In this document: positions 5,647 to 57,039 of the stretch, in pieces
How the letters are laid out: the number at the start of each line of letters is the position of its first letter
How positions within the stretch are numbered: the first letter of the stretch is position 1
NCBI RefSeq assembly: GCF_036588685.1
Contig: NC_086381.1
Location: 66,402,001 to 66,466,000, forward strand
Source: Mytilus trossulus
Lineage: Eukaryota
DNA: 64,000 bases
Direction of reading: 5' to 3'
Notes under the pieces: model-generated
Database searches by the model: none
What the model was told of the DNA's origin: nothing
What the model saw: the letters and a program-made list of their open reading frames with translations, nothing else
Made by a program: the position numbers and the translations under genes

Positions 5647-5802
5647 CGTTGTCTTTTGTAAAGACATCTTCCATGTTTCCTACTGGTACCGAATATTCTG
5701 CAACAACGTCCCTAATAGCTTCCAATTTGAACATACTAAAACAGCCGGGGCAACACATAACTGAACCAATAATATTCTGTGCACTCTTATTCATCCATAA
5801 AT
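5647..5802 (-). CDS. chs: Chitin synthase exon (DLWMNKSAQNIIGSVMCCPGCFSMFK...KDN)
   Basis: Equivalent to the conserved G.VLC.PGCFS motif; phases 1/1. Confidence 0.92.
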
Positions 5803-24200: not shown

Positions 24201-24240
24201 AAATCCGTTATGGATTGGACAACGAAACAAGGTTAACAAT

Positions 24241-24630
24241 AGACCACTTTCGAGTTCATCCGTCACCGGCAAAAACTCGTCAATTATGCACGCCTTTATG
24301 ACGTCATTTACCAGATAGAGGGGCTCGCCTGCATCCCTGCACTATTTACGTTCATCAAGCGTCTTAGTGATCGTCTTTGTGCAGGATAAACTAGAAATAA
24401 TGGTTGCTCTGTAGGTACTTACTGACAATTCCCTAATGACAGCAGTGTTGGTTGTCAATTTTGAGAATTCAATTTGCCGAATAATTCGTACAATATAGAA
24501 TTATAGTTTTCCAACCACTCGCTCAACATTGGAAGGAAGTGACGACGCCCCTAATCGCACAAATGACGGTGATAAAGGCGCGTATAATTGACGAGTTTTT
24601 TCCGGTGACGGATGAACTCGAAAGTGGTCT
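24241..24630. mobile_element. MITE with ~70-bp terminal inverted repeats
   Basis: agaccactttcgagttcatccgtcaccgg... and ...ccggtgacggatgaactcgaaagtggtct; AT on both flanks. Confidence 0.9.
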
Positions 24631-32270: not shown

Positions 32271-33365
32271 GGCCGTGTTCACACCAAACGCCGTGTACAG
32301 TAAACATGTTTACATTTGGTTTAATGTAATGTACACTAGTTTCACAAAAAAAATGTTCACATCTATACACCTTGTTTAGTTACCTGTACATAAGATTTGT
32401 TCACACTTGCAAACTATATGTCATTTAAATGTTCATAACGTAGAACCAAATTTTCAAACAAACAACTTTACTTTTCTAGCTGTTAGGGAACGCCAATTAG
32501 ATTTATAAAGAAAACGGGGGATTGATGTTCCCTCAATTTGATCAAAACAAAAACCGGGTCATTCTGATGATTAGAATGGACAAAATCTTTTTAATATCCT
32601 GAACCCTCAGTTCCCCCTTACATTATAGTGTTGAATATTGAATTGGTATCGTTGAAAAAAAGTAAAATACAAACCTTCACGCGAGAAAAAATTAGAAAGT
32701 CATTTTGGATGATTTGCAGTAGTTTAAAGATGTCTCGATTACGCATTTAAAACGTAGGCTGCATTAGTGTGCTTACCGAAGAAGAAAAAAATTGCAATGT
32801 TAAGGATCAGTACATTTCTATATTTTCTGTTTGTTTCAAATGGTATTTTTTTCCCCAATGAGTATTTGGAAAGAAACGGTGACATATTTTTTTAAATTTC
32901 AAATTGTATTTTAACGGGTAAATAAGCAATTAAATTCACCCTTTTTCAGTAATGCATTTATGGGTGAATCGTTGTTTGAGTAAAAACCAGTGGCTAATAT
33001 TTCTGTCAGTGTGTACGTCCAATCAATTTGGGAAGATCTTTCAAACAAATTATGTGATCGGCAAAGATGAATGGGTTAATAAGGCTACGAAAAGTGCTTT
33101 TATAACAAATACATATATCAAGTTTAGACAAATATTTCGTAAAGAACTATATTAACAAGTGTTATAAGTATCAATTTTATATAAAAATCGTTTCTTCCTT
33201 AAATATTTATGGTAAAAATAATATTCTAAATGTCTAGTTTTGTGTACACTTAACCTACACAAGGCCTACATCGACTATCGACTGCATGTAGAAAAAAATT
33301 GATTTAAACTACATATAAACATTTTGTTTTATCAATGGGAACGTAATTATGTTTAATGTATGTGT
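32271..33365. mobile_element. PIF/Harbinger-like non-autonomous element, one end truncated
   Basis: TAA-ggccgtgttcacacc terminus; reverse-complement similarity to 48679-50118. Confidence 0.65.
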
Positions 33366-33640
33366 AAGTTTTAAAATAACGACTCAGCTTTCTATTTCAA
33401 CCACTAATTGCATGTAGCATCAGTACATACACTAAAAAAACGAAAGTATGCAAAAAGAAATTGTAAACACAATAAAGAAACTTAAGATTGGACAACATGT
33501 AATGAAAGCTTACGTAACGTTTCAACTAACGTTCATTGACAAATTGGATATTTTTGTTGTGAGTGTTTGAATATAAAAAAAACCCAACAAAAGCTGATCA
33601 GATGGATTTTCATTATGCCAGAGAATAAATGAACACTTAC

Positions 33641-33706
33641 CCCAATGTGTAATAGCAGACCTAATGCGAATAAGATAACTTTGTAAACGAAGTGGCTACT
33701 TATATA
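33641..33706 (-). promoter_or_regulatory. TATA box and short non-coding first exon, probably of the dermatopontin-like gene
   Basis: TATATAA at 33706-33700, Inr-like ttattc ~30 nt downstream, GG|gtaagt donor. Confidence 0.5.
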
Positions 33707-34683
33707 GCTCATACAATTAAAGTATTCAATCGAGGAATGCTGTAGGTGTGAAACAATAATCAGTGACATATGTTCTTCAGGTTTGTTCATTTTAAACATG
33801 TTAATGAATATGTAAAATGGGTTGGGTGTGCGACATCTTTCATCTTTTGTTAAACGAGTGGACTTTTACCTGTACTTGCAGATTATCAAACCATAATTTA
33901 AGGCAGTATTGAATTATGTATTACTTTAATATCTACAAAATGTGTTCACAATTGTTCCAAATGTTACGCTTTAATGGTTGTTGTTTAAAAAACCCATTTA
34001 ACTCCCTACATAATGTGATTGATTGATTGGTATTCAACGCCACTTTCAGCTGTATTTTGTTATTTTTTCACTGTCAACTATTTGCATTTGGTAGGGAAAG
34101 TGGTAATAATTCTAGTCAATTAGGTTGTGGTCAAGCGCATCTGGCACGTGAGGGATTCAAATTCACAACGTTAACTTCCATTTAGAAAGGTCAGTGAAGC
34201 AGTAGTTGCACAAGTAACCTCCTACCTTGCTAGATAAGGTTATCCTATAAGTAGCTGGAGTAATCTTATAAATTAATATAATGGTATATTTTTATGTGGA
34301 TTGAATTATAAAAAAAATACGAATATTTTATGTTACATTGAAAAATATTTAGTTGCACCACAGTATTTTTGTTGTTTCGTTGTTTTTGCTCCTATAATTA
34401 GCGTTTTTGTCTCGGTTTCGGTTTGTATCTCGGATTTTTTTCTGCATCAATCTATGACTTTATAACTGTTGCCATTGTGTAAGTTTATGATGCACAGGTA
34501 TTTCTTTCAACTTACATTCTTAAGGATATGATAATACACGTTTTACTATGTTCATTATATAGATATATCTATTTTGAGGGTCCTTTGTTTCTTGCTGTTC
34601 GGTGTGAGTTAAAGCTCTGTGACAAGACCGAACTTTGACCTATAATTGCTTTTACAACTTCTGACTTGGTTGGTATATAAGTC

Positions 34684-34843
34684 AGATAATGCCTATTATA
34701 AGGTTTTTCTTGTCGAAGAACACACCTCGGGTTGTCAGGATTGCTCAAAGAAAGACCTCCCTATGGTCGGTCTTCCATTTGATCAATCCTGACACCCCTC
34801 GATGTGTTCAACGACAAGAAAAACATTAAAATATGCATTATCT
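34684..34843. mobile_element. Palindromic (foldback) MITE
   Basis: Whole element is an imperfect inverted repeat, agataatgc...gcattatct; absent from the paralogous block. Confidence 0.75.
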
Positions 34844-35989
34844 ATAACGTAACTTCTTGATTAACATAATCATTTTGATTTCATCAGCAAAGTTTTACAT
34901 TCTCTTTCGACTATGGTAAATTTCTGTTTTCCTATCTTTAATGTTTAATCATATGCTTGGTTTGTTTTGTACTTCTTTGTTACATGTGTGTGTGGTTTTT
35001 TTTTCGTTAAGTGATTAGGATTATACCATTTTACCTAATATGTGTGATTGTTTTGTTCATGCATAGTTGTAAATATAACGGATTTTAATACGTGTCGTAT
35101 ACGTGGGAATTTAGCTAGCTATAAACCCAGGTACATTAGAAAATGTCTGTACCAAGTCAGGAATATGGTAGTTGGTATATATTCGTACGATGTGTTTGAT
35201 CTCTTAATTTTGTCTTTTGATTAGAAACTTCCCGTTTTGAGTTTTGATTTTTATGTTTTTTTTTCACGCTTATTAAGAGTAAATAGAATAAATGCATATC
35301 ATTTTTAAATGTAAAGTGTTGAGATATATTTTTTTATCAAATTGATTATGATTTTTTGTATGTTGCAATGGTAGCTAACGTTAAATAATATATAACAAAT
35401 ATAACAATTACAACATCAAAAAATGTCATAATTTGCATAATCAATTTAATTTCAAAAAAGAAAATCTAAATAGAATCAATGCATATTATTTATATATGTA
35501 AAGTGCAAATATATATTTGAAGTCAAACTGATTATGAATGCAAATGTTACAAAAATTGAATAATATACAACAGTTATTACAATTACAAAATCAAAACATG
35601 TCATAATTTGTCATAACTTCGTACTTTATTTGGTCTTTTTTTTTTTTTTTTTTTTTTTTTAACTTTTTTGGATTCGAGCGTCACTGATGAGTCTTTTGTA
35701 GACGAAACGCACGCATCGTGTATACATAAAACTTATTCCTGGTATCTATGATAAGTGTATTTGCATAATACATTTTATGAATAAAGAATATCCAAGTCTG
35801 CTATATACATGTATTATTGCTGCATACCTCGTCGTCATCATCATTAAAGTAATATAATTTAGTTTCACATGCGAGTATATAAAACGATATATAGTAGATA
35901 TAGGAAGATGTGGTGTGAGTGCCAATGAGACAACTCTCCATCCAAATAACAATTTAAAAATTAGTGTCTATTCTTTCTTAAGAGACTTT

Positions 35990-38900
35990 ACTTACATTTT
36001 CTAAACCTACTACAGTAACTTTTCATAATGAAAACCTGGACAAAACAGTTATTTGATATACTAGTACTTTATTATTCTGTTTCAGAAATTGTAGCCAACT
36101 TGTATCTCGAACGGAGCTTGTTATGATAGCCATGCGCGCATCAAATTTGCAAAATATTGGAGGTCTTTTTAAATAATCATACAGAAAATACTGCAATGCG
36201 AATTATGACATTTATTTTGTAATTTTACATGTTGTAACATCGGTTGTATATTGTACAACGTTTATAACAATGCAACATCAAGATTTCATAATCATGTTTA
36301 ACACCGCCGCATTTTCGCGCCTGTCCCAGGTCAGGAGCCTCTGGCCTTTATTAGTCTTGTACTACTTTAACTTTAAGTTCCTTGTGTATGATCTGGAGTT
36401 TAGCATGGCATTCATCATCACTCAACTAGTATATATTTTTGTTTAGGGATCAGCTAAAGGACGCCTCCGGGTGAGGGAATTTCTCGCTGCATTGAAGACC
36501 TATTGGTGACCTCCTGCTGTTGTCTGTTCTATTATATGAGTTAATTGAGATGTTAGGAATACGCAATAAACACTCAATTACTAATGTGTTAGTTTATTCT
36601 TCATTTACAAAAGTTTATGTTTCAATTTATAATTCGACAAGCATAGTTTTTGTTTAGCTATGAAAGAGACTAAACCATTGAAATTCATTCATTGGACAGT
36701 AAATATCGAGTTTTGCTGATGAGACTTGATGGATTTGGTGCATCTGAATCGCTTGACATACCGAAAGATTGACCCGATAGACCTTTGTGCAACACTAGTT
36801 ACAATATTTTTTTTATAGATAGATAGTTTCGGGATTGATCAATGTTATACTGAAAAGCTTTCAGATTAATTTCCTGTTTATACTGTTCCAAGCATTACAG
36901 AAAGATTACATTCAGCCAGAGGGAAACTACGTGTAAAAGTAATCTGAAACTTGAAGAAGTTGAAAAACGGATGTTTTTTTTAAAGTTAATTTTAATGTTT
37001 GAATAATTTCCCCTTAATTTTCACAAACATTTACTGGTATTAATTAGTTTCTTGCTTTACAATCCCACAAAGTACAATGATATATTTTTTCTGTGTAGTC
37101 TTGACATACTAGTCAAATTGATTATGCAAATTATGATCTTTTTTATGTTGCAATTGTAACATCTGTTATATATTATTCAACGCTCCTTAATCGTTTCCAT
37201 TCGTCACAACTCGGCTGATTCCGTAACATTGGATGAATGGAGAGCAGCGAATTCACCCGAGGATTAGCGATTGTAATCACGTCTTGATCATAATAATCTT
37301 TATGATTTCAACAGCAAGTTTTCTTATATTTCTTCAAAAGTTAAGAGCACAGTAAATAAATGAACATATATATAGTACAATGGTGTATCCTATAGCATAT
37401 TTAGTAGAAAGTTTGTAACTCAAGATGAGGCAGAAAAGGCATCTGTGTCGTCTGAATTGTTGGCAATACATAAAATAGATAAGAGAAAGGAAAAACATAG
37501 AAAAAGAGTGGCATGCAAGCGTGAAAACATCTTTGCATTTTAATACTATCAACAATTAAGTAACGCATAATTCGAATAGTAATAACTGTTTACGTCCAGA
37601 TTGTGTACTCTTATTTCAACAACGTTACAAATGTAACACAATCTTTGTCAATTTATTACGTAGATAACAATCGCCATATAGACGTTCATTACTATCGCAA
37701 GTAAACTGGCGTTTGGTTCTGCAATTATTTACGTCCATCGTTTATGGACAACGTAGGACAGGTAAACTGTCTTAATTGGGTAGACCTAAGTAATACCAAT
37801 GTTTTCCTCTCGTTTAGTTTTTCTTCAATTGACATCATTAAAAAGGTCGGGGTCCGTGCAACATCTCCCAAAGTCTTCAGGAAATTCACTGTTTTATTTT
37901 ATGTTTAGAGTATATTGAATACGACCAATTTTGGGATACCCTAAAACACTAGAAAACACTAGTAGGTAAAAATCATTGTGTGTTTTTGTACATGTTATTA
38001 TTTGAAATACCCCTGACTGTCAAATTGCATAGCGAGAACATATTTTAAAGTAAATCTGAAACTTCATGGTAATACAAATAGCCTGAATGTAAAGAAAAAC
38101 GGTTTTAAATTATTGATACGTCGGAAAGTCTGGCCAACTCAGATACCAATTTTTTTTTCAAACCTAGTCAGAAAAAAATACTGTCGTTAAATTCCTGCCT
38201 TAAATTTTAATAGTTATAAGTCTTTCTTATGTGACCATACTTACATTTTCTAAATCTACTACAGTAACTTTTCATAATAAAAACCTTAACAAAACAGTTA
38301 TTTGCTATACTAGTGCTTTATTATTCTGTTTCAGAAATTGTAGCCAACTTGTATCTCGAACGGAGCTTGTATTTGATAGCCATGCACACATCAAATTTGC
38401 AAAATATTGGAGGCCTTTTCAAATAATCATATAGAAAATACTGGAATGCAAATTATGACATTTATTTATGTTGTAAATGTACATGTTGTAACATCAGTTG
38501 TATATTATACAACGTTTATAACAATGCAACATCAAGATTTCAAAAAAGCATGTTTAACACCGCCGCATTTTCGCGCCTGTCCCAGGTCAGGAGCCTCTTG
38601 TCTTTATTAGTCTTGCAATACTTTTAATTTAAGTTGCTTCTTTATAATTTGGAGTTTAGTATGGCATTCATAATCACTGAACTAGTATATATATTTGTTT
38701 AGGGATCAGCTGAAGGACGCCTCCCGGTAAGGGAATTTCTCTCTGTATTGCAGACCTCCTGCTGTTGTCTGATCTGGTTGTAGTATATAAGTCAATTGAG
38801 ATGTTAGGAATACGCAAAAAGACAGTTATCAAACACGCAATTACTAGTGTGTTAGTTTTTTTTTCATTAACGAAAGTTTATGTTTTCAAATTACAATTTG

Positions 38901-39979
38901 AAAAGCGTATTTGTTTTAAGCTATTAAAGATACTTAACCATTGAAATTATTTCATTGGAAAATAAATATCGAGTTTGACTGATTATACTTGATGGATTTG
39001 GTGCATCTGAATCGCTTGCAGGTGCAAAATTAAATAGTTTAAAGGCTTGACATACCAAAAGATTGACCCGATAGACCTTTGTGCAACACTAGTTACAATA
39101 TTTTTTTTATAGATAGATAGATTCGGTATTGATTTCCAAGCAATACAGAAAGACTACATTTAGCCATGGAAACTACTTGTATAAGAGATCTATAACTTAA
39201 AGAGGTCAACAAATATTTTTTTTTTAGTTCATTACAATGTTTGAATAATTTCCCCTTAAGTTTCTCAAAAATTTGTTTGTATTTGTTAGTAACTTGCTTT
39301 ACAATCCCACAAAAATTTAAAGTACAATGATATATTTTTCTGTGTAGTCTTGACATACTAGTCAAATTGATTATGCAAATTATGATCTTTTTTATGTTGC
39401 AATTGTAACATCTGTTATATATTATTCAACGCTCCTTAATCATTTCCATTCGTCACAAATCGGCTGATTCCATAACATTGGATGAATGGAGAGCAGCGAA
39501 TTCACCCGAGGATTAGCGATTGTAATCACTTCTTGATCATAATAATCTTTATGATTTCAACAGCAAGTTTTCTTATATTTCTTCAAAAGAGCACAGAAAA
39601 TAAATGAATTGAAATATAGTACAATGGTATATCCTATAACATGTATAGTAGCAAGGTCGTAACTAAAGATGAGACAGAAAAGGCAACTGTGTCGTCTGAA
39701 TTGTTGGCAATACACAAAATAGATAAGAGAAAGGAAAAACATAGAAAAAGAGTGGCATGCAAGCGTGAAAACATCTTTGCATTTTAATACTATCAACAAT
39801 TAAGTAATGCATACTTCGAATAGTAATAACTGTTTACGTGCAGATTGTGTACTCTTATTTCAACAACGTTACAAAATTTAATGTATCGAAATCTGTCAAA
39901 TTATTACGTAGATTATAATCGTCATATGGACGTTCATTACTATCTCCAGTACACTGGCATTTGGTTCTGCAATTATTCA
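35990..39979 (+). repeat. Tandem duplication of ~1.74-kb units (35990-37730 and 38250-39979)
   Basis: Direct colinear similarity; duplicated ORFs 37334-37555 and 39557-39799. Confidence 0.92.
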
Positions 39980-39980
39980 T

Positions 39981-42125
39981 GTTCCGATCCATATTATGAC
40001 ATTTTTACTGACTGTAAAATTGTACCGTGGAAAGTGTATTCATATCAAAAAGACGCACACATTTTCAAAACATCCGGTATTACTTCTGGTTACGTTCCTG
40101 TGATTCCCTTTGTTTTTGGTTTAAAATATTGAAAACAACACGTATAATAATTTTATGCGTCCGACGCGTTTTTTGTCTGGATTAATCTTCATCAGGAACG
40201 CAAAAAACAAACATTTGAAATCCGAAGATGCATTAGTTTGTTTGTTTGTCTTCCTTATCGAATTATAATATCGGTTATGTACTGTTGCCTTTATTTGTGG
40301 TATCGTTATCGTTATATCGTCTTTTAACTGGTATTTAGTCTGCTGTACCTTTTGTATTTTGTTGTTTCTCTTGCGCACTCCCTTTATATCAGAAGTGATG
40401 ATTGTTATTTCTTAAAACAGTTTCATTCGCAGTTTTGCATCCTCTGAATAATTTAAGACTTCTTCTATTGACGAAAGTACTATAATTATTTTGACCTAGT
40501 TTTATCCATGTATCCCAAACATCTGAATTTAAAATCCTTCTGCGTTTTTCCTAAAAAGCAAAGTTTCTTTTAATTACACATACCTAACATTATTATCCTA
40601 AACAGTACAATAGTAGTTTTACTTGATTATATTAGAAGATAAAACTACCCGGTTCCAAAGGGAACATTCGTATAGTTAAAAACACCATTGTCTGCAGCAA
40701 ATACAAAATTTCCGTCTTGGTCAGGACTATTTGTACCACTATATACTTCATCCGCTAAAAGGAATTGACATGTAGTTTGTATCATTGGACTTGTAGAAAG
40801 ATTTTTAATCGTATTGAATCGTAAATATCAAAAAGAAAGATCTGGTATGATTGCGGATGAGAAAACAATACATAAGAGACCAACATGAAACATAAATTAT
40901 CAGCCCATATCGCATAGTCAGCTATAACAGGTTCGAAATGACAACCTTAAACAAGTCAAACGAGATAACCAACGACATAATTAATGAATGTACAAAACAT
41001 GAATGAAAAAAAACACGTAACACATAAACAAAAGACAACTGATGAATAACAGGTTTCTGACTTGAACAGTCACAAACAAAGTGAATGTGTTGGGGTTAAA
41101 CAGGTTATCATGATCCCCCTAACCTGAGACAGTGGTGTAATAGTGCAAAATATTAACGAACGATACGAGTCAGTTGAAAAAGCTTACAATGTAACTCATC
41201 AGTTCGATAAAAATAAAAAAAATCTACAAATACAAGTGGACGTGGCCATATATTTGTACATCCTAACATTACAAATATGGTAAGTACACATCTGAGATAA
41301 CTCGCCGTAACTGACAGCTGGTTCAAAGCCACTCACAACTAATGAAAAAGCATGCATATACGACTAAATTATCAATCAGTAAACATCCAACATTGAATTG
41401 ATTTAGTGTGAAGACGTCATAAACAGTCAGAGAAAAATGTGATATTGTGCAATGCCAAGAAACAGGTATTGACACATATCTATGAATGTCTATAATTATG
41501 TAGATAACAATACTATTTCATGTATTTAGTTTGCCTTTAATTTACTGATTTCAAAATCAATATTGATACAATTTAAAACAATATTCAGTGATCTAATAAC
41601 AGTCTTGAATTGGTAACCAAGGATAAGTTTATTTAAAGTTTACCAGGATTGTTTCTGAAACCAAATCTGTTTATCAGTGCATATTTTATTTGTAACTTAA
41701 GTTTGGGAAATACAATCCTTATATGTTGTTTTAGCACATTTTCGACACTTGTTAAGACTAACAATAATTAGGTAGGAATTACTTGCTTTCTACATCTTTA
41801 GTGCTTTAGGCTGGTAGTAAAATCAATAATTACAAAATCTATGTGTTTAGATACATGTCGTTCAACTGATTGATGTTAAGAAGTGAGTATTTTTTACATA
41901 GTTTCTAAGAACTAGTAAAACAAAATGTTTCGTCAATCAATAGACGCTGTTGCTATTAATTACAGCCCAGAAGTCAGCACTGTATGTGCTGACATGAATT
42001 ATCATTGATATGGTTATATCTATAAACTAACTGTTAACAAAATTTGGAGTTTACCTTAGCTGGATTTGGCGAAACCTTTATGAATTTTGGTCCTCAATGC
42101 TCTATAATTTCGTGCTTTATTTGCA
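39981..42125 (-). repeat. Inverted duplicate of C-type lectin intron/exon block 52110-54683
   Basis: Colinear reverse-complement similarity; lacks the HINE at 53306-53610. Confidence 0.9.
40650..40754 (-). pseudogene. Orphan duplicated C-type lectin exon (DEVYSGTNSPDQDGNFVF...VPFGT)
   Basis: Copy of 53853-53957 with W>Y and the donor GT shifted by 1 nt. Confidence 0.85.
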
Positions 42126-42139
42126 TGATATGGCCTAAT

Positions 42140-44623
42140 CAGTGACGCTCGAATCCAAAAAAGTAAAAAAAAAACAAATTAAGTACGAAGTTATGACAAA
42201 TTATGACATGTTTTGATGTTGTAATTGTTATAACTGTTGTATATTATTCAATGTTTGTAGCAATTGCATTCATAATCAGTTTGACTAAAAATATATCTTT
42301 GCACTTTACATATATAAATAATATGCATCGATTCTATTTAGATTTTCATTTTTAATCAAATTGATTAATATGCAAATTATGACATTTTTTGATGTTGTAA
42401 TTGTTATATTTGTTATATATTATTCAACGTTTGCAACCATTGCAACATAAAAAAATCATAATCAATTTGATAAAAAAAATTATATCTTTACACTTTACAT
42501 TTACAAATGATGTGCATTTATTCTGTTTACACTTTAAAAGCATGAAAAAAAATCACAACAATCAAAACTCAAAACGGGAAGTTTCTAATCAAATGACAAA
42601 GTTAAGAGATCAAACAAATCAAACGAATGGAGATCAACTATCATATTCCTGACTTGGTACAGGCATTTTCTAATGTACCTGGGTTTATAGCTAGCTAAAT
42701 TCCCACGTTTACGACACTTATTATATTCCGTTATATTGACAACTACTCATGAACAAAACAATCACACATGTTAGATAAATTAGTATAATCTTAATAACTA
42801 AACACATGTAACAAAGAAGTACAAAACAGACCAAGCATATAATTAAACATCAAAGATAAGAAAACAGAAATTTACCATAATCGAAAGAGAATGTAAAACT
42901 TTGCTGATGAAATCAAAATGATTATGTTGATCAAGAAGTTACTCAGAAAGATTGAATGCAATATTCAAATTGTAACATGTGCAACATATAGATGTACATT
43001 AATTGCATATCTTGCATAATCCGTTTGAAACACGAAGAAATTTGAATCATTGTTGCATGACTCATCGTTAACATTTAAGTATATAAATTAGCCTTAATTA
43101 ACTAAAATAACAAACATTTTGAAAAATATCAGAAGAAAACAGTATACCTTCAAATTAATTTCTGTAAACCAAACTAAAAATATCAGGAGAAACTGATTTA
43201 TTAATTAAATAATAGAAAGCTTAAAGTTTCTGGAAACTATTCTATATATTTATATCAGACATAATAATTGTATTGATAATAATTAGATATTAGAATTTGG
43301 TATATATGAGTGCCAAGGCGAATCTCCAACCAAGTCAGAAGTTGTAAAAGTAATTATAGGTCAAAGTTCGGTCTTGTCACAGAGCTTTAACTCTCACTGA
43401 ACAGCAAGAAACAAAGGACCCTCAAAATAGATATATCTATATAATGAACATAGTAAAACGTTTACCATCATATCGTTATGAATGTAAGTTGAAAGAAATA
43501 CATGTGTATCATAAACTTAAATAATGGCAACAGTTATAAAGTCAAAGATTGATGCAGAAAAAAAATCCGCGATACAAACCAAAACCGAGAGAAAAACGCT
43601 AATTATAGGAGCAAAAACAACGAAACAACAAAAATACTGTGATGCAACTAAATATTTTTCAACAAAATATTCGTATTTCTTTTTATTATTCAATCCACAT
43701 AAAATATACCATTATATTGATTTATAAGATTACTCTAGCTACTTATAGTATAATCTTATCTAACAAGGTAGGAGTCAACTTGTACAACTACTGCTTCACT
43801 GACCTTTCTAAATGGAAGTTAACGTTGTGAATTTTAATCCCTCACGTGCCAGATGCGCTCGACCAAAATCTTAATTGACTAGAATTATTGTCACTTTCCC
43901 TATCGAATGCAAATAGTTGACAGCGAAAAAATAACAAAATACATCTGAAAGTGGCGTTAAATACCAATCAATCAATCACATGTAGGGAGTTTAATGTTTT
44001 TTTAAACAACAACCATAAAAGCGTATCATTTGGAACAATTGTGAACACATTTTGTAGATATTAAAGTAATACATAATTCAATATTGCCTTAGATTATGTT
44101 TTGAAAATCTACAAGTACAGGTAAAAGTGCACATGTTTAACAAAAGATGAAAGATGTCGCACACCCAACCCATTTTACATATTCATTAAACATGTTAAAA
44201 TTGAACAAACCTAAATAGCATACGTCACTATTTATTGTTTCACACCTACAGCATTCCTCGCTTGCATACTTAATTGTATGAGCTATATAAGTAGCCACTT
44301 CGTTTACAAAGTTATCTTATTCGCATTAGGTCTGCTATTACACATTGGGGTAAGTGTTCATTTATTCTCTGGCATAATGAAAATCCATCTGATCAGCTTT
44401 TGTTGTTTTTTAAGATATTCAAACACTCAAAACAAAAATATCCAATTTGTCAATGAACGTTAGTTGAAACTTACGTAAGCTTTCATTACATGTTGTCCAA
44501 TCTTAAGTTTCTTTATTGTGTTTACAATTTCTTTTTGCATACTTTCATTTTTTTAGTGTATGTACTGATGCTACATGCAATTAGTGGTTGAACTAGAAAG
44601 CTGAGTCGTTAGTTTAAAACTTA
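42140..44623 (+). repeat. Inverted duplication block X' with TATA at 44284-44290 and donor at 44350
   Basis: Pairs with 33365-35700. Confidence 0.92.
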
Positions 44624-44859: not shown

Positions 44860-44949
44860 TATAAAATGTCTACATATTCTGAACTAACTCCATTCTCAAG
44901 TATAAGTTTCATTGCTGAGACACCGAACTCGTCTGTTTGGTTTATGACG
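44860..44949 (+). promoter_or_regulatory. TATA box and non-coding first exon of the Cys-rich peptide gene
   Basis: TATAAAA at 44860, Inr-like ccattc at ~44890, G|gtgagt donor at 44950, acceptor tttcag ending at 45031. Confidence 0.6.
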
Positions 44950-45043
44950 GTGAGTTTGATTTGGTGTATTAGTATATTTAACGAGCTTGAAGATCATTGT
45001 CATAATCGATGTTTACAAATTTTCGTTTCAGTATTAAAGTATC

Positions 45044-45107
45044 ATGATGCAATTTTGTTGTTTGATTTTAATCCTTCTCTGTACAATTGGTGTTTCTACT
45101 GGCAGAA
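45044..45107 (+). CDS. Secreted Cys-rich peptide, signal-peptide exon (MMQFCCLILILLCTIGVSTGR)
   Basis: Typical signal peptide; A|gtaagt donor, phase 1. Confidence 0.8.
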
Positions 45108-45640
45108 GTAAGTATTGTTAGTGTTTTAACGTATACATGTAGGAATTGTCATTACTTATACACCATGATCACTAAAGTACTAAACCAGTTTATTTTGTTT
45201 TATAATTAGTTACGCATAACATTAAGAATGAACCTGATTTCATACCAACACATACTTGTATTAACGTGCAAGACCACTTTGAATCAATAAATGGAAATTA
45301 TATGAAGTCAACGCATACAACGATTGTATTCAAAAGAGTTGAGGGGATATTTCAAGTATACACATGTTGGTGTTTGAAAGATACAGTACGAAAATACCAT
45401 TAGCGTAACCTTGGTGTTTATTCACAGTTTATATTTCGTTTGTGGTGTCATAATATGCTATCGCAAATCGATTGGAGTTTTTATTCTGCGTTTCACATGT
45501 AGTAATATACTATTATATCATTTATTTGTATATTTCTATGTGCTGAGTGTTGTTGTGTTTCGAAAGCTATTTTCTTATTTATTAAGGCAAAGTTTGGTGC
45601 TCATAAATGTCAAATTGTATTCATAAACTGTATCCTTTAG

Positions 45641-45766
45641 GACTCACTAAAAATTGTGTTGCGTCAAATGGTACATGTGGCCGAAAAGGTGAAACTTGTG
45701 ATGATGCATTTGGTGAAGGATGGATCGAAAGAGGAAAATGTTGTTATGGAAAACCATGTTGTAAAT
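45641..45766 (+). CDS. Secreted Cys-rich peptide, core exon (RLTKNCVASNGTCGRKGETCDDAFGEGWIERGKCCYGKPCCK), beta-defensin-like spacing
   Basis: cctttag acceptor, gtaagt donor, phases 1/1; C-x6-C-x6-C-x13-CC-x4-CC. Confidence 0.85.
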
Positions 45767-47875
45767 GTAAGTAAACACATAAAGCATGATCAATAGTTCT
45801 TGTCCCTTCTATTAAAAAATGAAACATACAATGTAGGCACGTGTCTTAATAAAATATCATGTTGTAAATAGAATTAAACAATTTTATGCTGCAAGCAAAT
45901 TATATGATATATTGTTTTGATTATCTCAAGTGCAAAGAACACCATTGGAATCGAATAATATATGTGTTTTATTCCGATGGCAGTGAAATCTGAAATTTAA
46001 AACAAAAGACACATCAAATGCCCTGTTTTTACATTTCCCTTTATATTTTAAATTTAAAACACGATGTTTTTGTTGCGACAAGGTCTATGACATTGTTAAA
46101 TGTATTGTAACAGTTCCTGACATAGTTTATTGCAAACAATTGTAAGATATTCAGTTAGAAAATGAAATAAAAACTGTGTAATGCAAAGTTGACCTTATAC
46201 TGATTTGGCTTTAATTGGTATACCATTTTTGTAAGGGACAGAACCTTTGATGTCGACAAAATTATGGCCAATGTGAAAAACTGCTAAAATGATGGAAATC
46301 AAATATGTACATAAAAAACAATTAGATCTTTTGAATTAATTTTAAACCTCAGCAGTGTAAATAATTAATAACTGATTTCGTGTTGCTTGCCTGTTTATCT
46401 CATTAATTATTTATCGGGTTTACTACCCGCATTTGTTCTTTTTGTTTTCTTACATATTTTATTATTGTCCTTAAATTGAATTACATATTTGACACCATTT
46501 ATAAAATTATGTCAACAAAATATATCAAAACATTATTTAAACACAAGTTTCTCAAACAATGGCGATAATATACACTTGTTTGTACATTTTTATGAAAAAC
46601 AATGCCGATAATGAACGCACGTGTTTGTGAATTTAATTGGAGTCATCACTAAGGATACTTTAAAAGAATAACATCAAATTGTACACTCATATGCGGCAAA
46701 GGTGAGCGAAAAGTAATGCGACGTGATCAGTCAAACTAACTTTATTAGATAAACTCATAAAGGAACAATCGTTTTCATTTGTCAATTCAAACATTCGACC
46801 TCACACCTGCGAAAATAAAACACGTGTACTCTAAGTTAAACGGACTGGTCAGTATTCACGTAGCCGGTCAAGGTTGTTATAATTCATAATTTTGTGCAAT
46901 AGTAAAACTTTAAAACTTATAAGTAATATGTTTCACATCGAAATATTTAATTGTTCAACTGTTCACGTAGCCGGTCAAGGTTGTTATAACCTTCCATAGT
47001 AGTATTCACGTACGTGATTATGTTCTTGATTATTCCATAGCAATTCTAACTTTGATACATGTGCATGTAAAGTTCATTGAATTCATAATTTTGTGCAATA
47101 GTAAAATTTTAAAACTTATAAGTAACAGGTTTCACATCGAAATATTAAATTATTCAACTGTGTTCTCATTTGGTTCTGAATTAAGAGATCTACCATTTTT
47201 ATTTTTGGACGGGGGACTTAGATAAAACATGTTGTTCCTTTGTGAGTATTTATCTCTGTCCTGTCTTTTCATTTTTTGGTCTATATAGTCCTGCATTTTT
47301 TTGTCATCCGGTCTTTTTTTGCCAAGTTGTTCATCCTGCTTTTTCATATATTTCGTAAGTTTTAGGTATTCGACTAAAAAAAGTGATATTTTTTCTGATC
47401 CAGGAGATGGCAAACCATGGCACAGTGGAAGGAATATACTTTATAAACTCCAGCGATATACTTTATTAATTTTTATAATTAACCGTTTTGCTACTCTCGG
47501 TTTAAAAACGATCGTAACTTATATATTGTAAATATTTAAATAGTTACATAAAAAACAATCAATTTTTAAAAGCGTGTTTATTCATTTAATGTATTGATAA
47601 AAAGCGGGTGGGTCCCTTGTTGTCATGCATTCAGTCATCCTTATTTGTAGTTTCTTAATATTTCGATTCTCAGTTTATCTTACATGTATAATTTTGTCTT
47701 TTATTTTAAATACGCATGCATAATACACGTCACTTTTGGGGATAGTTCATCTATTTTTTCGGTATGAAATTAAAAAATAAGTTTTCAGCCAATTGAAATA
47801 AAAAAACGTACATTTACATTTTTTCTTATGAACTAGTCTACGATTATTCTTACAATTATATATTTATTATTTCAG

Positions 47876-47958
47876 TTCCACACATACAAAATAACAAATT
47901 TCGCCGATGTTACAAATCAATCCTTTTACATCAACATGCCTTCACTGAATTCATTTGA
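47876..47958 (+). CDS. Probable terminal exon of the Cys-rich peptide (FPHIQNNKFRRCYKSILLHQHAFTEFI*)
   Basis: tatttcag acceptor, phase 1; AATAAA at 48344. Confidence 0.5.
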
Positions 47959-48678
47959 ATTTCGTGGTGACATTGATAGTATATTGCATACTACGTCTTC
48001 ATACACGTGCAAAAATGATACGATTATTTTTGCTTTGTTTCTGTGTTTTGGGGACAATTTGCTCCGGAAATGATAGATAATTTCTGAATGACCAAACACT
48101 AAGCTTCTTCAAGTGTAACGTGTGTGGGTTGTATCTGATTCTTTCAACCAATGAAATGAGTCGTAACAAATTGTTTGTTTGTGATACGCCAGAATGATAT
48201 CAATGAACTATCAAACGTTCAACTTGATTGCATTTTACTGTAAGCTAAGTTTCAGATTTCAATGTCCGTTACTTTATAAACATATTTTCGACAATAACGA
48301 TTTAAACACGTCGCGAATTATTTTATGTTATCTGTAAAAATACAATAAATATAATCATTTTGAAACTAGATCTCTTGTTAGCTTCTTTTATGCAACTTTG
48401 CATGCATGACAGATTTTTTAGGTGATTTGTTTGGCCAATCTCATGGTTCGAGATCACAGACGCGCCTGCTCTTTCTCAATAATACGTTTAAAGAAAGTTG
48501 TACTACTTTTGGGATAAATTATATCAAAATAATTGAAAATTTCATCCACTCTAATACAAAATGTGGACAATTTATATATTGATGTTAAGGGGATCTATAA
48601 AACTGTTGACAACTTTTGAAATGCTAGATTGTAACCAATTTCAGTTGAACCAAATGACTACTCGTGTATAAAAACTAA

Positions 48679-50118
48679 GACCGTGTTCAACTTGAACTAA
48701 ATTCGGTGTTGTGTTAGTGTAACTTACACGTAAACTAATCACAATTGCGTTCCCATTGATAAAACTCAATGTTTACATGCAGTTTAAATCATGTTTTATC
48801 TACACACAGTCGATAGTCAATGTAGGCCTTTGTAGGGTTAAGTGTACACACAACTAGGCATTTAGGACATAGTTTTACGGTGTACATATTTAAGAAGGAT
48901 ACTATTTTTGAGTAAAATTGATATTTTTGATAATTATAAGTAAAGTTCTTTACACAAAATTGTTGTCTAAATTTTACTGATTTTTTTTTGTTAAAAAAAA
49001 TTAATGTACTTTATTTGATTCTGATCAAGACTCAAATCAGCATCATTGCCGAACCCATAAGACAGCAACCAATTGATTTTCAGGGGGAGGCTATTATAGT
49101 TGAGTATAAAACATAAAGGCAAGGGGTGGGTGTTGAGCTATGGATTTTGTTTTGGAAACAAAAATGTTTCCAGTATTTGGCCTTGAAAAAAAAATTGTTT
49201 GTTTCAACCTCAGCTGCCACTATATATAGTGCTAAAATTGATTTCGACTTCTCACCAAAATTTCTCCTGAAAACAATCAATAGCCCACGCACCCTTCCCG
49301 CTCCCTCTCCCCAAAAAATGAAAAAAATGCTGCCAAATTCATTTGAAAAGGTCTTCCCGAATCGACTTGACGTACACAGATATATTCGCCACTGGTCTTT
49401 ACTCAAACAACTATAAATGCATGACTAAAAAAGTGTGAGGTAAATGATATGTTTGTCTATCTCAGATCCGTTAAATATCATTTAAAATAAATATAAAAAC
49501 GTTACCCTATTCTTTTACCAAATACTCCTTTGAGAAGAAATACCATTTGAAACAAACAGAAAAGACAAAAATGTAGTGATCCCTAATATCGGCTGTAAGG
49601 ACGCTGCTGCAGCTAACGTTTTCTAATGCGTCATCGAGACATCTGTTGTATTAAAATGGCTTTCATAAAGTAGCAACCACTTAACTTAAAAAAGGGAGAT
49701 TTTTTATTTTTTTTTTATCTGAGTCAGATTATTTTCGCGCGTACGTTTTTATTCCTTTTTTTTCGATGCTGGTGATCAAATACTTTTTTTCAATATTTAA
49801 CACTATAATATCATCTGTATGACCATTTTTTTTTATCAAATTGTGGGATCGGAATATTTCCATTTCCATCCTCATCCCCCTTTTGAAGTCAAATGGTTGT
49901 TCCCTTACCGGTAGAAAAATTGTCCAAAAATTTTGAATTCAGTTCTACGTAATAAAAATTCAAATGACATATAGTTTACAAGTGGGAACAAATCTTATAT
50001 ACAGGTAGCTAAACAAGGTGTATAGATGGGAACAAATGTAATGTGAAACCTAGTGTACACTACACTAAACTAATTTTAAACATGTTTACTCTACACGGCG
50101 TTTGGTGTGAACACAGCC
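48679..50118. mobile_element. PIF/Harbinger-like non-autonomous element with TAA target duplication and nested small inserts
   Basis: TAA|gaccgtgttca ... tgaacacagcc|TAA. Confidence 0.7.
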
Positions 50119-51658
50119 TAAGATATCTAAACTTAAGTCATGTCATATCTGAAAATATTTATTGTACTTTATATATATCGATAACGATGATACAAATGAG
50201 GTATGCATAGTACTCACCTCCTATCAATAATCATATTATTTTGCGAGAATGCAGTTTATTGGTAACTTTTTTTTTCAAAGAAGTTGTACCACCTTTGGTG
50301 TGATATCCTAGACAAACTGATTACTGTTTTTCATTGACGAACTTTGTTTTGCCCTATCTAGGTGCGTACAGCTGCCTTATACAGTACAACAATTCTATAT
50401 AGGTTTATCACTGTGTGTATGTCTTCAAAATACCATGGGATGAATTTGACGAAATAGTTGTCTTCTTCTTGACAGGTTACATTACATTTTCATCCTGTCA
50501 ATGTTACATTTAACCTAAAAATATTTGTTAATGTCATAAGTTAATTCAATGTTGTAAATTTTGTTTTAACATTCAACTCTTTTTGTGTCATATAAATAGT
50601 AGAATGTGTTCCCACTACAACTTGTCCTGAAGGATATGCGCAGTTAGATAACCAAACCTCTAGTCCTAATTGCTTGTTTATAGTTGATTGATTTATATTG
50701 GTGTTTAATGCTGCTTCCAGCAATATCTTCTGAACATGTTATTTTTCTGCAAAACAACAGGTCTCAATGTAAAGCGAATAGTTATACCATGAAAATAATC
50801 ATCGTTAACCAAGTTATCTGTTCAGATCAAATTTTAAAACATTAATACGAGAATTATTTGATAGCGATGGAAAAACATGAAAAACTAATTGGTCTATCTA
50901 AAAATACATTTATATTGTATACATTGAGGATAAACCAATATGCATTATCAATTCAATGTTTGAAAAGATGATTTCACTATTACTGATGGAATTTCATGGG
51001 TATATCATAAGCTCGAATATTCACATAGGCTTGTAGGAAGGCTTTGTCGAAACCATGAGATCAAATAACCACAAAAGTATATTTATTCCCAAAGCCACAG
51101 AATTTAGTAGCATCGAAATTAAATGAATCCATAGAACTTAAAGTAACTTGATAAAAATCGCTCGCAATACTCAATTGCAGTACTAATTAGGGACAACATC
51201 AAAAGATCGATGTAGGATAAACAACTTAAATCAAATAGTTTGGGGGTGGGGGAGGGGGTTAAAATTCTGCAAGTTTTGTATATCTCAAATCGATTTTTAC
51301 ATATATCTCTATTGGTAACTCATTGTTTTCAAAATTAAGTTAAGAAGGGGTTGGGGGTCAGTGAAAAAAACAAACTATGTGAATTAAGTTTTGTATCCTT
51401 CATCTCCGGTGTAAAAAATGTATTAATGTTGTATTATCTTTATTTATCTTATTAATGTACAGTTTGTTCCTAAATTCTAGTCGATATGTACCATGACACC
51501 AGGAGCTTCTCTATGGAGACCAAATACTGAAGCAGAAGTTATTGCTGTCTTTGAACAGTTTCGATTTTTCAGTAAGTTATTATTTAAAAGTAACTAATTA
51601 TTCTTTTTTATCATTGTAAATAAACTCATCATAGATAACAGAACTAAATTTTGTATAA

Positions 51659-52064: not shown

Positions 52065-53305
52065 TCGAATCTAAAAGTTAAAAAGGCCAAATCATGAAAA
52101 TAAAGTACGAAATTGAAGAGCATTGAGGACCAAAATTCCTAACCGTTTTGCCAAATCTAGCTAAGGCAATATATGCCTGAGGAAGAAAAGCCTTAGTATT
52201 TCAAAAACTCCAAATTTGTAAACAGTTAGTTTATAGATATAACCATATCAATGATAATTCATGTCAGCACATACAGTGCTGACTACTGGGCTGTAATTAA
52301 TAGCAACAGCGTCTATTGATTAACGAAACATTTTGTTTTACTAGTTCTTAGAAACTATGTAAAAAATACTCACTTCTTAACATCAATCAGTTGAACGACA
52401 TGTATTTAAACACATAGGTTTTGTAATTATTGATTTCATTACCAGCTTATAGCACTAAAGATTTAGAGAGCAAGTAATTCCTACTTAATCATTTTTAGTC
52501 TTAACAAGTGTGGGAAATATGCTAAAACAACAGATAAGGATTGTATTTCCCAAACTTCAGTTACAAATAAAATTATACACTGAAATACTAATTTGGTTTC
52601 GAAGTTAAGTTGTTCCTGTAACAAACTTATTTCAAATAGTAATGGCACCCCCTCTATTTTACGGAAATGTTGTTTACCGCGCCAGGAAATTAAGAAACAA
52701 TCCTGGTTAACTTTCAATAAACTTATCCTTGGTTACCAATTCAACACTGTCATTAGATCACTGAATATTGTTTTATTTGTATCAATATTGATTTTGAAAT
52801 CAGTAAATTAAAGACAAACTAAACAGTATTGTTATCTACCTGTTTCTTGGCGTTGCACAATATCACATTTTTCTCTGACTGTTTATGACGTCTTCACACT
52901 AAATCAATTCGATGTTGGATGTTTACTGATTGATAATTTAGTCGTATATGCATGCTTTTTTATTAGTTGTGTGTAGCTTTGAACCAGCTGTCAGTAACTG
53001 TGAGTACTCTCAGATCTGTACTTACCATATTTTTAAATTAGGATGTACAAATATCTGGCCACGTCCACTTGCATTTGTAGATTTTTCTTATTTTTATCAA
53101 ACTGGTGAGTTATATTGTAAGCTTTTTCAACTGATTCTTATATATATTTTGTACTGTTACACCACTGTCTCAGGTTAGGGGGGATTCTGATAACATGTTT
53201 AACCCCAGCACATTTACTTTGTTTGTGACTGTCCCAAGTCAGAAACCTGTAATTCAGAAGTTGTCATAATTTGTTTATTTGTTTCCTGTTTGTTTTTCAT
53301 TCATT

Positions 53306-53610
53306 TTTATGCCCCACCTACGATAGTAGAGGGGCATTTTGTTTTCTGGTCTGTGCCTCCGTTCGTTCGTTCGTTCGTCCGTCTGTGCGTCCGTCTGTGC
53401 GTCCGTTCGCTTCAGGTTAAAGTTTTTGGTCAAGGTAGTTTTTGAAGAAGTTGAAGTCCAATCAATTTGAAACTTAGTACACATGTTCCCCATGATATGT
53501 TCTTTCTAATTTTAATGCCAAATAATAGTTTTGACCCCAATTTCATGGTTCACTGAACATAGAAAAATATAGTGCCAGTGGGGCATCCGTGTACTATGGA
53601 CACATTCTTG
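53306..53610 (+). mobile_element. Helentron-associated non-autonomous element (HINE/DINE-1-like)
   Basis: subTIR atgccccac/gtggggcat, internal (GTTC/GTCC)n microsatellite, 3' hairpin gtgt...acac, inserted in a T-run; empty site in the paralogue near 40995. Confidence 0.8.
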
Positions 53611-55525
53611 TTTTTACATTCATTAATTATGTCGTTGGTTATCTCGTTTGACTTGTTCAAGATTGTCATTTCGAACCTGTTATAGCTGACTATGCGATAT
53701 GGGCTGATAATTTATGTCTCATTTTGGTCTCTAATGTATTGTTATCTCATCGGCAATCATACTAGATTTTCCTTTTTTATATTTACGATTCAATACGATT
53801 ATAAATCTTCCTAGGAGTCCTATGATACTAACTATATGTCAATTCCTTTTAGCGGATGAAGTATGGAGTGGTGCATATAGTCCTGACCAAGACGGAAATT
53901 TTGTATTTGCTGCAGACAATAGTGTTTTTAACTTAACGAATGTTCCCTTTGGAACCGGTAAGTTTTGTCTTCTAATATAATCAAGTAAAATAACTATTGT
54001 TTAAAATGTACTGTTTATAATAATAATGTCAGGTATGTGTAATTAAAAGAAACTTTGATATTTATGAAAAACGCAGAAGGATTTCAAATTCAGATGTTTG
54101 GGATACATGGATAAAGCTGAAATGATATATATCAACGGGACGACAATGACCCAACAACACAAACAAGACATAGTAATTTTGTCAATAGAAGAAGTCTTAA
54201 ATATTTCAGAGGTTGAAAAAGTGCGAATGAAACTGTTTTAAGGAATAACATTCATCACTTCTGATATAAAGGGAGTGCGCAAGAGAACAAAAACAATAAA
54301 CAAAAGGTACAGCAAACTAAATACTAGTTAAAAGTCGATACAACGATAACGATACCACACATAAAGGCAACAGTACATAACCGATATTCTGATATCATAT
54401 TTCGATAAGGAAGACAAGCAAACGAACTTATACATCTTCGGATTTCAAATCTTTGATTTTGAGCGTTCCTGATGAAGGTTAATCCAGAAAAAAAAAACGC
54501 GTCGGACGCATGAAATTATTACACTTTTTGTTTTCAATATTTTAAACCAAAAGCACAGGGATTCACAGGAACGTAACCAGAAGTAATACCGGATGTTATG
54601 AAAATGTTTGCGTCTTTTTCTATGCATTCACTTTCTACTGTACAAATTTACAGTCAGTTAAACTGTCATAATATGGATCGGGACACTATCAATTAAATTG
54701 TATATAAGACATCTCTTCTGATATCTAAAGATCAAAGTCTATGAAAAGTCAGAAAAATGTAACCAAGTTAATTGAAACATTGATATATCGACCATTTTCG
54801 TCAACTTATTTGTGATGATAACATGGTTTCTTATGTGGTGTCATTTTCAGTCGGTCATGTCTCTGTTAGAGCGGATTTTGAATAAGACGAGCATCCCTAA
54901 GAATGAAGTCAGTAGTGTGTGAAATTACCCGATTACAAATGTGCTATCTACACACAAACTTAGGTATGAGGAATAACAACTAGAGTCGACACTACAGAAG
55001 ATAACATGTCACCATCACGAATTGTTTGACCGAAACGATGTGTGTTGATTCAACTCACTCACCACTTAATTGAGAGATGAAAACACCATACGAAATGGCA
55101 GAGGGACTATTACGAAACATGCATCTGGTAAAGTCGAATCTGTAAATTGAGAGTACCATACTCAGACGAGTAATTTTCCGAAAATGACTGTTTTTTTCGA
55201 AATGACGTCGACAACATTTCTAGAATGCCTCTTTTGAAGAGATGATAACGTTCAATGACGGTTTCTATACTGTTTATGTTTTCTTTAAACCATGATATCA
55301 GATGGTGAGAAACTGTGAATATATATATATATATAAATATTAATTGATTCAAATACCAGGATGTTCTTATATGATGAATTTTACCGATTTCTTGTCCTTC
55401 TACAGAAGCTATTGGGTATATTTTTGACAACGGCTTAGTCTATCAAAACTGTCTGACTGTTTTCCTTTTTTTCTGATTTACATTTAATTGTTTTCATACA
55501 ATATTCAGCATCTGTTTTAAAATCA

Positions 55526-55865
55526 GAGAGCTGCGGTGTAGTGGTTAGTGCATCGGACTACTAACACAAAGGTCCTGGTTCGATTCCCGTTCGGGGATGA
55601 ACATTTTAGAGACTGATTTTCGGCTCTCACTTGACACCATTTGCGAGTACGGTCTTTGGTAAACGATGATAGGCTGTCGGATGGGGACGATAAATGGCTG
55701 ACCCGTGTTAAGAGAGAGCCATATCTTTTGCAGATTAAAGACACTCTTGTAGATTTTGAAAAAAGAGTAGGCTTATACCGCGACAATGCAGCACTCGCAC
55801 CCGACAAGTGGAAAGGGATTAATATAAGTTGCAAGACTTGTTTCCCAATCCACTATAAATAAATA
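55526..55865 (+). mobile_element. tRNA-derived SINE (Deu/Nin-domain-like central region)
   Basis: A box ggtgtagtggtt, B box ggttcgattcc, (taaa)n tail. Confidence 0.75.
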
Positions 55866-57039
55866 CAAATGTATGTTTAAACTCCAATAAATTTTCTTTT
55901 TTTCTTTTTTTCAGGTTTTTTTTATTTCGAAAACCACTGTATTACTATTGATGTCTTTAATGGTAGTTCATTTTGGGGTGATGAAGTCTGTGCGAACGAA
56001 AATCAATATGTTTGTAAATTTCCATGGGTTAGTAGGAACATAATTTGTGAAATTATTTGATAGAACTGATTTCTTTTTGTATCTTATCATGCTTATTGAA
56101 ACAAAGTCACTTATCTACAGTCCATTATGTTATCATGTATAACCAAACATCAATCTGTATTATTAGTTTGTCTTTTTGCAAATTAAGCGAATTTAAACAA
56201 AGAAGCTACATCATAAAAATGGAAATGGGTCATATCATGTGACTGATTTTTTTACATGGATTTTTCGAGGAAACGGTAGTTTTTTTCCCAAAAAAAGTAA
56301 CACATAAAGTGTGTTCAATGGATAAGACTATCATCAATGTGTCCAATGAACGAGGCGTACAACGTATCATCAGTCTGTTTAATGAATGAGTCTGATCATG
56401 ATCGTGTTAAATGCATGGTAATTATCGTCGAATTGATCATAACATGTACATAAGAAGCACAAAGGGGCAACCTTTAGAAGCAGGAGCTCATCCTTTGTTT
56501 TGACGGCTTTCGATGAAGTTCACATTTTTGTGGGTATCAATGTTTCGTGGAATGAGGAAAACTTGCATTTTCGTGAATAGTTTATTTCGTAGTATTGCAA
56601 AAGTCTGCCTATATTCTCATTCCTTTGGAAAATAAATTATTCAAAAAGTTAAATAACTAAAATACCGAACTCCAAGGAAAATTCTAAAACGGAAAGCCCT
56701 TATAACATGGCAAAATCAAAAACAACCTAAGGTTCCACAATTGATTCACATCGGAGCCAGTTATTGTACTTTGTTTTTAAAACGGCAAATAATTTCTGAG
56801 TTACCCTTTAGCTGTAGGTTTCTTGCAAATGTATTACACTTTTTTTTGTTCATGTTTGGCTCTTTTAATAAAAGTTGGTTGTAAGAACATGGTTGAAAAA
56901 AGTGGTGTCTTTCTCATTTTGACATACCTAATAATTTGAGAAATATTTTGAACTAAATTTTGTACACTCAAGATTTGTACCGTCGTAAGCTAAAGCTAAT
57001 TGACCTGGCCTCGTGATAGTGGAAGATATTAGCAGGCAA

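Follow-up and report, generated by a model that had tools for sequence, protein, structure and literature searches.

A seven-cysteine module of predicted beta-defensin fold at the start of a probably damaged C-type lectin-like gene in Mytilus trossulus

A cysteine-rich exon in a 64,000-nucleotide stretch of the Mytilus trossulus genome (contig NC_086381.1, positions 66,402,001 to 66,466,000 of the forward strand; hereafter the window) raises the question of whether it encodes a free peptide or one part of a larger protein. A previous sequence-only reading had joined a TATA box, an untranslated exon, a signal exon, the cysteine-rich core exon, a terminal exon and an AATAAA into a complete gene for a secreted peptide of about 90 amino acids. 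The analysis presented here indicates that the exon very probably belongs to a gene whose predicted product is a secreted C-type lectin-like protein. By homology, this gene consists of a leader, the cysteine-rich module and a C-type lectin-like domain (CTLD) over approximately 11 kb, with the other exons lying 5-10 kb downstream and extending to 56060 (Table 1). Overall, it is probable that the exon encodes the N-terminal module of a lectin-like gene and that this particular copy is broken in the lectin domain.

The 5′ part of the earlier model was confirmed. The TATA box, untranslated exon, signal exon and cysteine-rich exon are present with canonical phase-1 splice sites, and translation of the core exon gave the claimed spacing, C-x6-C-x6-C-x13-CC-x4-CC, with seven Cys. 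The start of the first exon was placed about 30 nt past the TATA box; TATAAA is a common motif in the window (96 occurrences on the + strand), which is AT-rich (28-36% GC) and contains few long open reading frames (ORFs). The codons just 5′ of the ATG were matched by the relative P0009 in tblastn. The signal exon gave 60 matches at E<1e-3 among 115 fetched family proteins, and the predicted leader was hydrophobic, with a peak 11-residue Kyte-Doolittle mean of 3.2. When all six frames of the window were searched with a loose beta-defensin-type Cys pattern, the module exon was the sole match. Given this unique match and the roughly 80% identity to relatives, the leader and module exons are, at the level of sequence, beyond chance. 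The donor of the module exon is probably genuine, because the Logan relative P0004 reads Cys-Lys-Tyr through this point without a stop and because annotated relatives switch sequence exactly there.

A search of longer proteins returned 11 Mytilus matches with CTLD, MAM or fibrinogen domains, and the closest relative was P0011 (XP_071121987, M. edulis, 211 aa). In tblastn, P0011 matched six segments of the window in query order: 45044-45103 (80%), 45643-45765 (80%), 50605-50673 (74%), 51481-51561 (67%), 53840-53956 (69%) and 55932-56024 (39%). Each of P0006 and P0014 matched four or five of the same exons. The six coding segments follow the order of the full-length relatives with compatible phases, and the junctions 51571/53853 and 53957/55915 have canonical splice sites and preserve the reading frame. 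The top seven matches of a C-type lectin (CTL)-type profile in the window were these six segments and an inverted copy, the last exon being weak (E 0.23). Against Pfam Lectin_C, the last exon alone reached E 0.038 and 15.2 bits, below the cut-off of 22.6; P0011 scored 32 bits against the same cut-off, and its structure model matched CTLDs (best Foldseek E 1.6e-7). Of the four core CTLD Cys, one is encoded by the 51481 exon and three by the 55915 exon, and the WIGL-like motif W-S-G-A is encoded by the 53853 exon. Two points count against this gene model: the splicing of all exons was deduced from homology, and the pyrimidine tract before the acceptor at 50599 is weak.

None of the motifs EPN, QPD and WND was found in the lectin exons of the window. 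Among the 50 relatives in which a CTLD directly follows the module, EPN occurred in 2, QPD in 0 and WND in 1, and QPD occurred in 12/17 Sushi-led relatives. Canonical calcium-dependent sugar binding by the direct-CTLD branch is doubtful, because its members mostly lack these motifs.

Table 1 Features of the window bearing on the lectin-like gene and its copies
Feature	Position	Strand	Evidence
TATA-like box TATAAAA	44860-44866	+	Sequence; position alone
Probable non-coding first exon	44890-44949	+	Donor GTGAGT at 44950, next acceptor 45031
Signal-peptide exon, ATG 45044, phase-1 end	45032-45107	+	80% identity to P0011 residues 1-20
Seven-Cys module exon, phase 1 on both sides	45641-45766	+	Flanked by AG and GTAAGT
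Terminal exon of the earlier peptide model, most likely intron DNA	47876-47958	+	0 family matches
Linker and first CTLD strands, 3 Cys	50600-50682	+	74% to P0011 residues 66-88; profile E 4.2e-7; 49 family matches
About 800 bp breaking the CTLD at its Trp-bearing segment; likely lesion, possibly intron	50683-51480		No profile match
CTLD helix 1 end to helix 2, phase-1 donor	51481-51571	+	67% to P0011 residues 106-132; profile E 1.1e-7
CTLD exon with WIGL-like motif W-S-G-A, phase 1 on both sides	53853-53957	+	tblastn E 6e-14; profile E 1.1e-8
Last CTLD exon, 4 Cys, stop 56058-56060	55915-56060	+	39% to P0011 residues 176-206, E 0.007; 7 family matches
Inverted decayed copy of 52084-54685	39980-42136	-	84-86% DNA identity, three blocks
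Inverted copy of 42135-44623 joined to 48721-50119	32270-35691	-	Self-blastn, 71-93% identity

The relatives of the module itself were collected with a module profile, which, applied to 4899 candidates 75-2000 aa long, retrieved 92 clusters. Of these, 91 were named, all from Mytilus (edulis, galloprovincialis, trossulus, coruscus and californianus), and one was an ENA sequence. A single-exon search of 1.84 billion representatives gave 23 matches. The 20 that were kept included 9 and 8 named Mytilus sequences (P0018 among the 9) and 2 genomic ORFs; P0032-P0034 were dropped as repeat-driven chance matches. No relative was confirmed among the 174 and 112 pattern matches of two metagenome scans, and the Atlas searches gave no usable match. 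The restriction of the module to Mytilus is provisional, because close kin are more readily retrieved through the word index and annotation of other mytilids is sparse. The module is strongly conserved: 12/41 positions are invariant in the 20-member alignment, all seven Cys among them. The Cys count was 7 in 89/92 clusters, G-x-CC-x4-CC was present in 91/92, and the module began within the first 35 residues in 86/92.

With the lectin exons following downstream in order, the core exon lies within a larger multidomain protein of signal, module and CTLD, and the stand-alone peptide is thereby refuted. What had suggested such a peptide is an AG at 47875, a 26-codon open frame with one Cys, the AATAAA at 48344 and a module that is predicted to be defensin-like. 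Yet the proposed terminal exon found no match at E<1e-3 among the 115 fetched proteins and none to the family profile, and the 10 kb past the module donor contains 19 candidate acceptors, several with equally long frames. The AATAAA could not be confirmed as a signal, being one of 79 on the + strand (1.2 per kb). All 91 of the 91 named relatives continue past the module for at least 43 residues, and an eighth Cys, which the last exon had been expected to supply, is unsupported, since 89/92 module clusters keep seven whatever comes next. A stand-alone secreted form was absent from the 92 clusters of the profile search and from the 23 representative matches, and a search of 30-97 aa proteins gave a single candidate, an intron-flanked genomic ORF. 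A free peptide of about 90 aa ending in the 47876 exon and founding a new antimicrobial or protease-inhibitor family is therefore extremely improbable. The idea of a new family survived in part, detached from the stand-alone peptide. The single module exon matched neither Pfam nor PDB sequences, and a Pfam scan, whose filters discard weak matches, placed 0/20 modules in any family, defensin models included. The literature searched contained no description of the module, nor did term look-ups in PMC12842671 and PMC3039611; subscription journals and supplements lay outside this coverage, and a prior description is quite possible.

The lectin domain of this copy is interrupted. An in-frame TGA at 50686-50688 follows the third Cys of the 50600 exon, and homology restarts at 51481. 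The 800-bp insert and the stop replace about 14 codons including a conserved Trp, so that the intact strand 1-to-helix 1 segment carrying this residue is missing from the window copy. In relatives, the flanking Cys are separated by 14-21 residues and Trp is present in 45/47, and in the P0011 model the conserved Trp is residue 101, which opens helix 1. The gap 50683-51480 gave no match to the CTL-type profile. It starts with a GATT-repeat motif, which occurs a second time at 43977 on the opposite strand and which we take to resemble the tail of bivalve short interspersed elements (SINEs).

The gap might alternatively be a true intron, or two introns around a micro-exon, in an intact gene that produces a working lectin. 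Two observations argue for this and tell against a lesion: GT and AG stand in frame at the homology edges, which would also allow a spliceable, internally deleted lectin rather than a dead gene, and the remaining exons are free of stops and frameshifts. However, the sole in-frame splice across the gap, from GT 50683 to AG 51480, leaves 5 residues between the Cys compared with 14-21 in 47 relatives, and it removes the Trp with which helix 1 begins. There were 18 phase-0 micro-exon candidates in the gap, of which 2 contained Trp, both behind purine-rich acceptors, and none was plausible. In addition, decayed inverted copies close by mark the locus as rearranged. An intact gene is accordingly judged unlikely, and the copy is more readily explained as non-functional or truncated, a reading that we consider likely from its predicted exons. 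Excerpts of PMC7653742 report pseudogenised variants and presence/absence variation for mussel immune genes.

A broken lectin gene might still release the defensin-fold module as a free short peptide through retention of intron 3, use of the acceptor at 50475 or termination at the stop at 50686. Intron 3 retention would add two codons, Cys-Lys, before a stop at 45772 and an AATAAA at 45848, for a total of 8 Cys; this read-through frame terminates after the eighth Cys, and the Logan relative P0003 has the same ending. Against this, any phase-1 donor yields such a Cys through its T|GT, P0004 reads past the module donor without a stop, and AATAAA is as frequent as 1.2 per kb. The acceptor at 50475 has a good pyrimidine tract, but the frame behind it lacks a family match (best E 38), and no leader-bearing database protein ends soon after the module. 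We therefore regard a short product of this locus as quite unlikely. The frame at 50476-50513 (+), short and Cys-bearing with a stop, is a possible alternative last exon. A mini-exon ending in Cys-Pro-stop was looked for past 50000, and none was found.

The module precedes several kinds of partner. Among the 92 clusters, 50 carried a CTLD, 20 MAM, 17 a Sushi-led partner (most with a CTLD behind), 2 fibrinogen, 1 EGF and 2 other sequences, and all five partner types have RefSeq models. P0053 (CTLD) and P0056 (fibrinogen) were identical at 15/15 leader and 41/41 module residues. P0093 (EGF) and P0096 (Sushi and CTLD), both M. edulis RefSeq entries whose records differ in length, were identical at 23/23 and 42/42. 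Such identical cassettes on different partners point to very recent shuffling, to first exons held in common or to chimeric models. In the module tree, the CTL label changed 7 times, and at least 5 changes were forced by starred branches. These data are consistent with a symmetric phase-1 module exon that, together with the leader exon, would have been shuffled repeatedly onto other phase-1 domain exons; repeated shuffling seems the simplest explanation because the module exon is symmetric and in phase 1. Several observations weaken this picture. About one third of the 50 CTLD assignments were made through a motif or source name rather than Pfam. The tree is weak, with 41 columns and unsettled bootstrap values, and it grouped the window module with two MAM rows. 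Some fusions may be chimeric gene models: P0014, P0015 and P0079 look so, and P0056 is not from RefSeq. As judged from the sequences, we nevertheless consider the shuffled seven-Cys module to be real. P0026 contains two module copies, each followed by Sushi-like sequence, and is probably two tandem genes fused.

The claim of a beta-defensin-like core was borne out at the level of predicted fold. The module model had a mean pLDDT (predicted local distance difference test) of 84, with three of five models near 80. In Foldseek, the top 11 rows were human beta-defensin-1 (TM 0.62-0.66, E 0.17-0.72), the best with TM 0.65, prob 0.97 and E 0.17. VIA returned 21 chains at Z>=2, with beta-defensins of crocodile, birds and human at the top, the best being crocodile CpoBD13 (Z 4.5, root-mean-square deviation 1.6 over 34). 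Big defensins were not among the rows listed by Foldseek or VIA. A weak profile match linked the module to platypus DLP-1 (PDB 1b8w; E 0.012). In the full-length P0011 model, pLDDT was <50 over most of residues 1-69, and the module was not resolved. The module is thus predicted to have a beta-defensin fold of a short helix and a beta-sheet; the modest scores, with no Foldseek E < 0.001 and Z < 5, speak against relying on it too firmly.

In beta-defensins and panusins, the six Cys pair 1-5, 2-4 and 3-6. From the G-x-C motif and the beta-defensin spacing, we take the first Cys of the central CC to be the canonical fourth and the second to be the extra one. The next Cys after the module lies in the following domain at a distance that differs per partner class, so the seventh Cys is without a fixed partner. 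The mature Cys count was odd in 37/43 complete proteins and in 47/58 leader-bearing ones; the 43 are related, and their counts do not represent 43 independent events. By class, odd counts were found in 24/26 CTLD, 7/7 Sushi, 1/1 fibrinogen, 1/1 EGF and 4/8 MAM proteins, and the exons of the window sum to 15 Cys. From these odd counts an interchain disulfide is suggested: with six module Cys engaged in the three disulfides of a defensin, the extra one, directly after G-x-C, would be left unpaired and would bridge two chains. In that case the module would serve as a handle that holds dimers or oligomers together covalently, raising the avidity of whichever recognition head follows. Working in the other direction are the even counts of the two nearest CTL relatives (P0011 and P0017) and of 4/8 complete MAM proteins, in which the spare Cys may pair within the chain. 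The interchain handle is accordingly a tentative proposal, with chances somewhat short of even.

Alternatively, the module could function like a defensin and bind the membranes or cell walls of microbes while attached to a recognition domain, with no role as an oligomer handle; such a protein would resemble a big defensin with the domain order reversed. The predicted fold is compatible with this, as are the positive net charge in all partner groups (medians +2 to +7) and the phase-1 intron before the Cys exon, common to big and beta-defensin genes in the part of PMC7203481 consulted; basic residues at the module flanks could also allow it to be cleaved off. Yet the window module has a net charge of only +2, the 12/41 invariant positions fit a structural role, and the invariant seventh Cys is left unexplained. 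A tethered binder, although the chief competitor of the interchain handle, is rather unlikely in our assessment. A bolder form of the chain-linking proposal is that leader and module together form a shared plug, still being shuffled onto CTLD, MAM, Sushi, fibrinogen and EGF heads, which links chains covalently so that different heads could pair; this we consider improbable.

An immune or mucosal role can be inferred from the partner domains and from the gill and digestive-gland expression reported for mussel CTLs in general in parts of PMC10140915 and PMC5549309. The locus itself is ordinary, probably one damaged gene of a lectin-like family that has expanded in mussels, and not a new antimicrobial peptide. 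The main interest lies in a seven-Cys module that stands before at least five unrelated domain types while automatic annotation names the partner alone. If undescribed, the module would be a clear case of a defensin exon reused via exon shuffling, a mechanism discussed for defensin evolution in the excerpts of PMC7203481. It also bears on the question of how oligomers of mussel lectins and fibrinogen-related proteins might form in the absence of collagen stalks, and the plug reading, if true, would provide an animal that lacks antibodies with a combinatorial set of two-headed recognition proteins. In practice, Cys-rich exons closed by a phase-1 donor call for a search several kb downstream before a peptide is called.

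The surroundings of the gene are rearranged. The inverted copy at 39980-42136 holds a WIGL-like exon at 40648-40752 (-) in which Trp is changed to Tyr and the donor is altered, and the copy at 32270-35691 is without promoter, signal or module exons. Between them, 35972-37729 and 38221-39977 form a direct duplication of about 1.8 kb with 84% identity. A tRNA-like sequence at 55529-55600 (+) resembles a SINE head, as judged by eye; ARAGORN found no tRNA gene over the window. Elsewhere, chitin synthase-like exons occupy 2231-9417 (-), with Pfam Chitin_synth_2 at E 1.7e-7 for 4069-4596, and a partial inverted copy of 1-2917 lies at 14314-16026 (75-89% identity). A Mutator-like transposase fragment at 23753-24301 (+; Pfam PF20700, E 1.2e-6) is accompanied by short inverted repeats, 23781-23840 versus 23356-23296 and 24561-24633 versus 24309-24238. 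A 149-codon frame at 18005-18454 (+) had no convincing Pfam match and presumably resembles the tail of a retroelement reverse transcriptase.

Compared with known systems, the gene is closest to the Mytilus C-type lectin-like proteins XP_071121987 (M. edulis) and XP_063399502 (M. trossulus), which likewise have a signal peptide, a single CTLD and the same segment order. Identity to these relatives is 65-80% over the first five coding segments and 39% over the last; the window copy differs in lacking about 14 residues and in its stop. The database names of the relatives derive from the partner domain or read 'uncharacterized'. The mussel CTL repertoire was surveyed in PMC10140915, the main text of which contains 0 occurrences of 'defensin', 'N-terminal' and 'MAM'.

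With vertebrate beta-defensins, crustacean panusins and non-canonical big defensins, the module shares the C-x6-C start, G-x-C, the terminal CC and the predicted fold. Beta-defensins and panusins have six Cys and the module seven. Peptides of the beta-defensin type end with their Cys domain, whereas the module exon ends at a second phase-1 donor and leads into another domain; in named relatives, the remainder after the module is never shorter than 43 aa. In big defensins, too, a beta-defensin-like domain forms part of a larger secreted bivalve protein, and the gene has a three-exon start with an untranslated exon. The junctions 45107/45640 place a phase-1 intron before the Cys exon as in big defensins, an arrangement described for big and beta-defensin genes in the consulted part of PMC7203481. 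In big defensins, however, the Cys domain is C-terminal behind a hydrophobic N-terminal domain, whereas the module is N-terminal, directly after the leader, and has five partner kinds. With no hydrophobic N-terminal domain encoded before the module, the predicted product falls outside the big defensins.

Mytilin, myticin, mytimycin, myticusin, macins and CRP-I are likewise secreted, Cys-rich and members of multigene families. As free peptides they have even Cys counts: 8 in mytilin, 8 in myticin, 12 in mytimycin, 10 in myticusin and 6, 8 or 12 in macins according to excerpts of PMC10608444, and six in CRP-I according to a part of PMC4558851. The odd count of the module sets it apart from these described peptides, a distinction drawn on reported Cys counts.

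In collectins and ficolins, chains with CTLD or fibrinogen heads at their ends are linked through a short N-terminal piece that carries Cys. Mannose-binding lectin offers a parallel in working only, in that its Cys-rich N-terminus does the chain-linking job proposed for the module; the mussel proteins differ in having no collagen stalk, a different, defensin-type fold and a chain linkage that is only inferred. Taken together, these comparisons place the gene, by homology, in the CTLD superfamily, damaged in this copy, and its module, by structure prediction, beside the beta-defensins in fold and outside them in Cys number and in its form as part of a larger protein.

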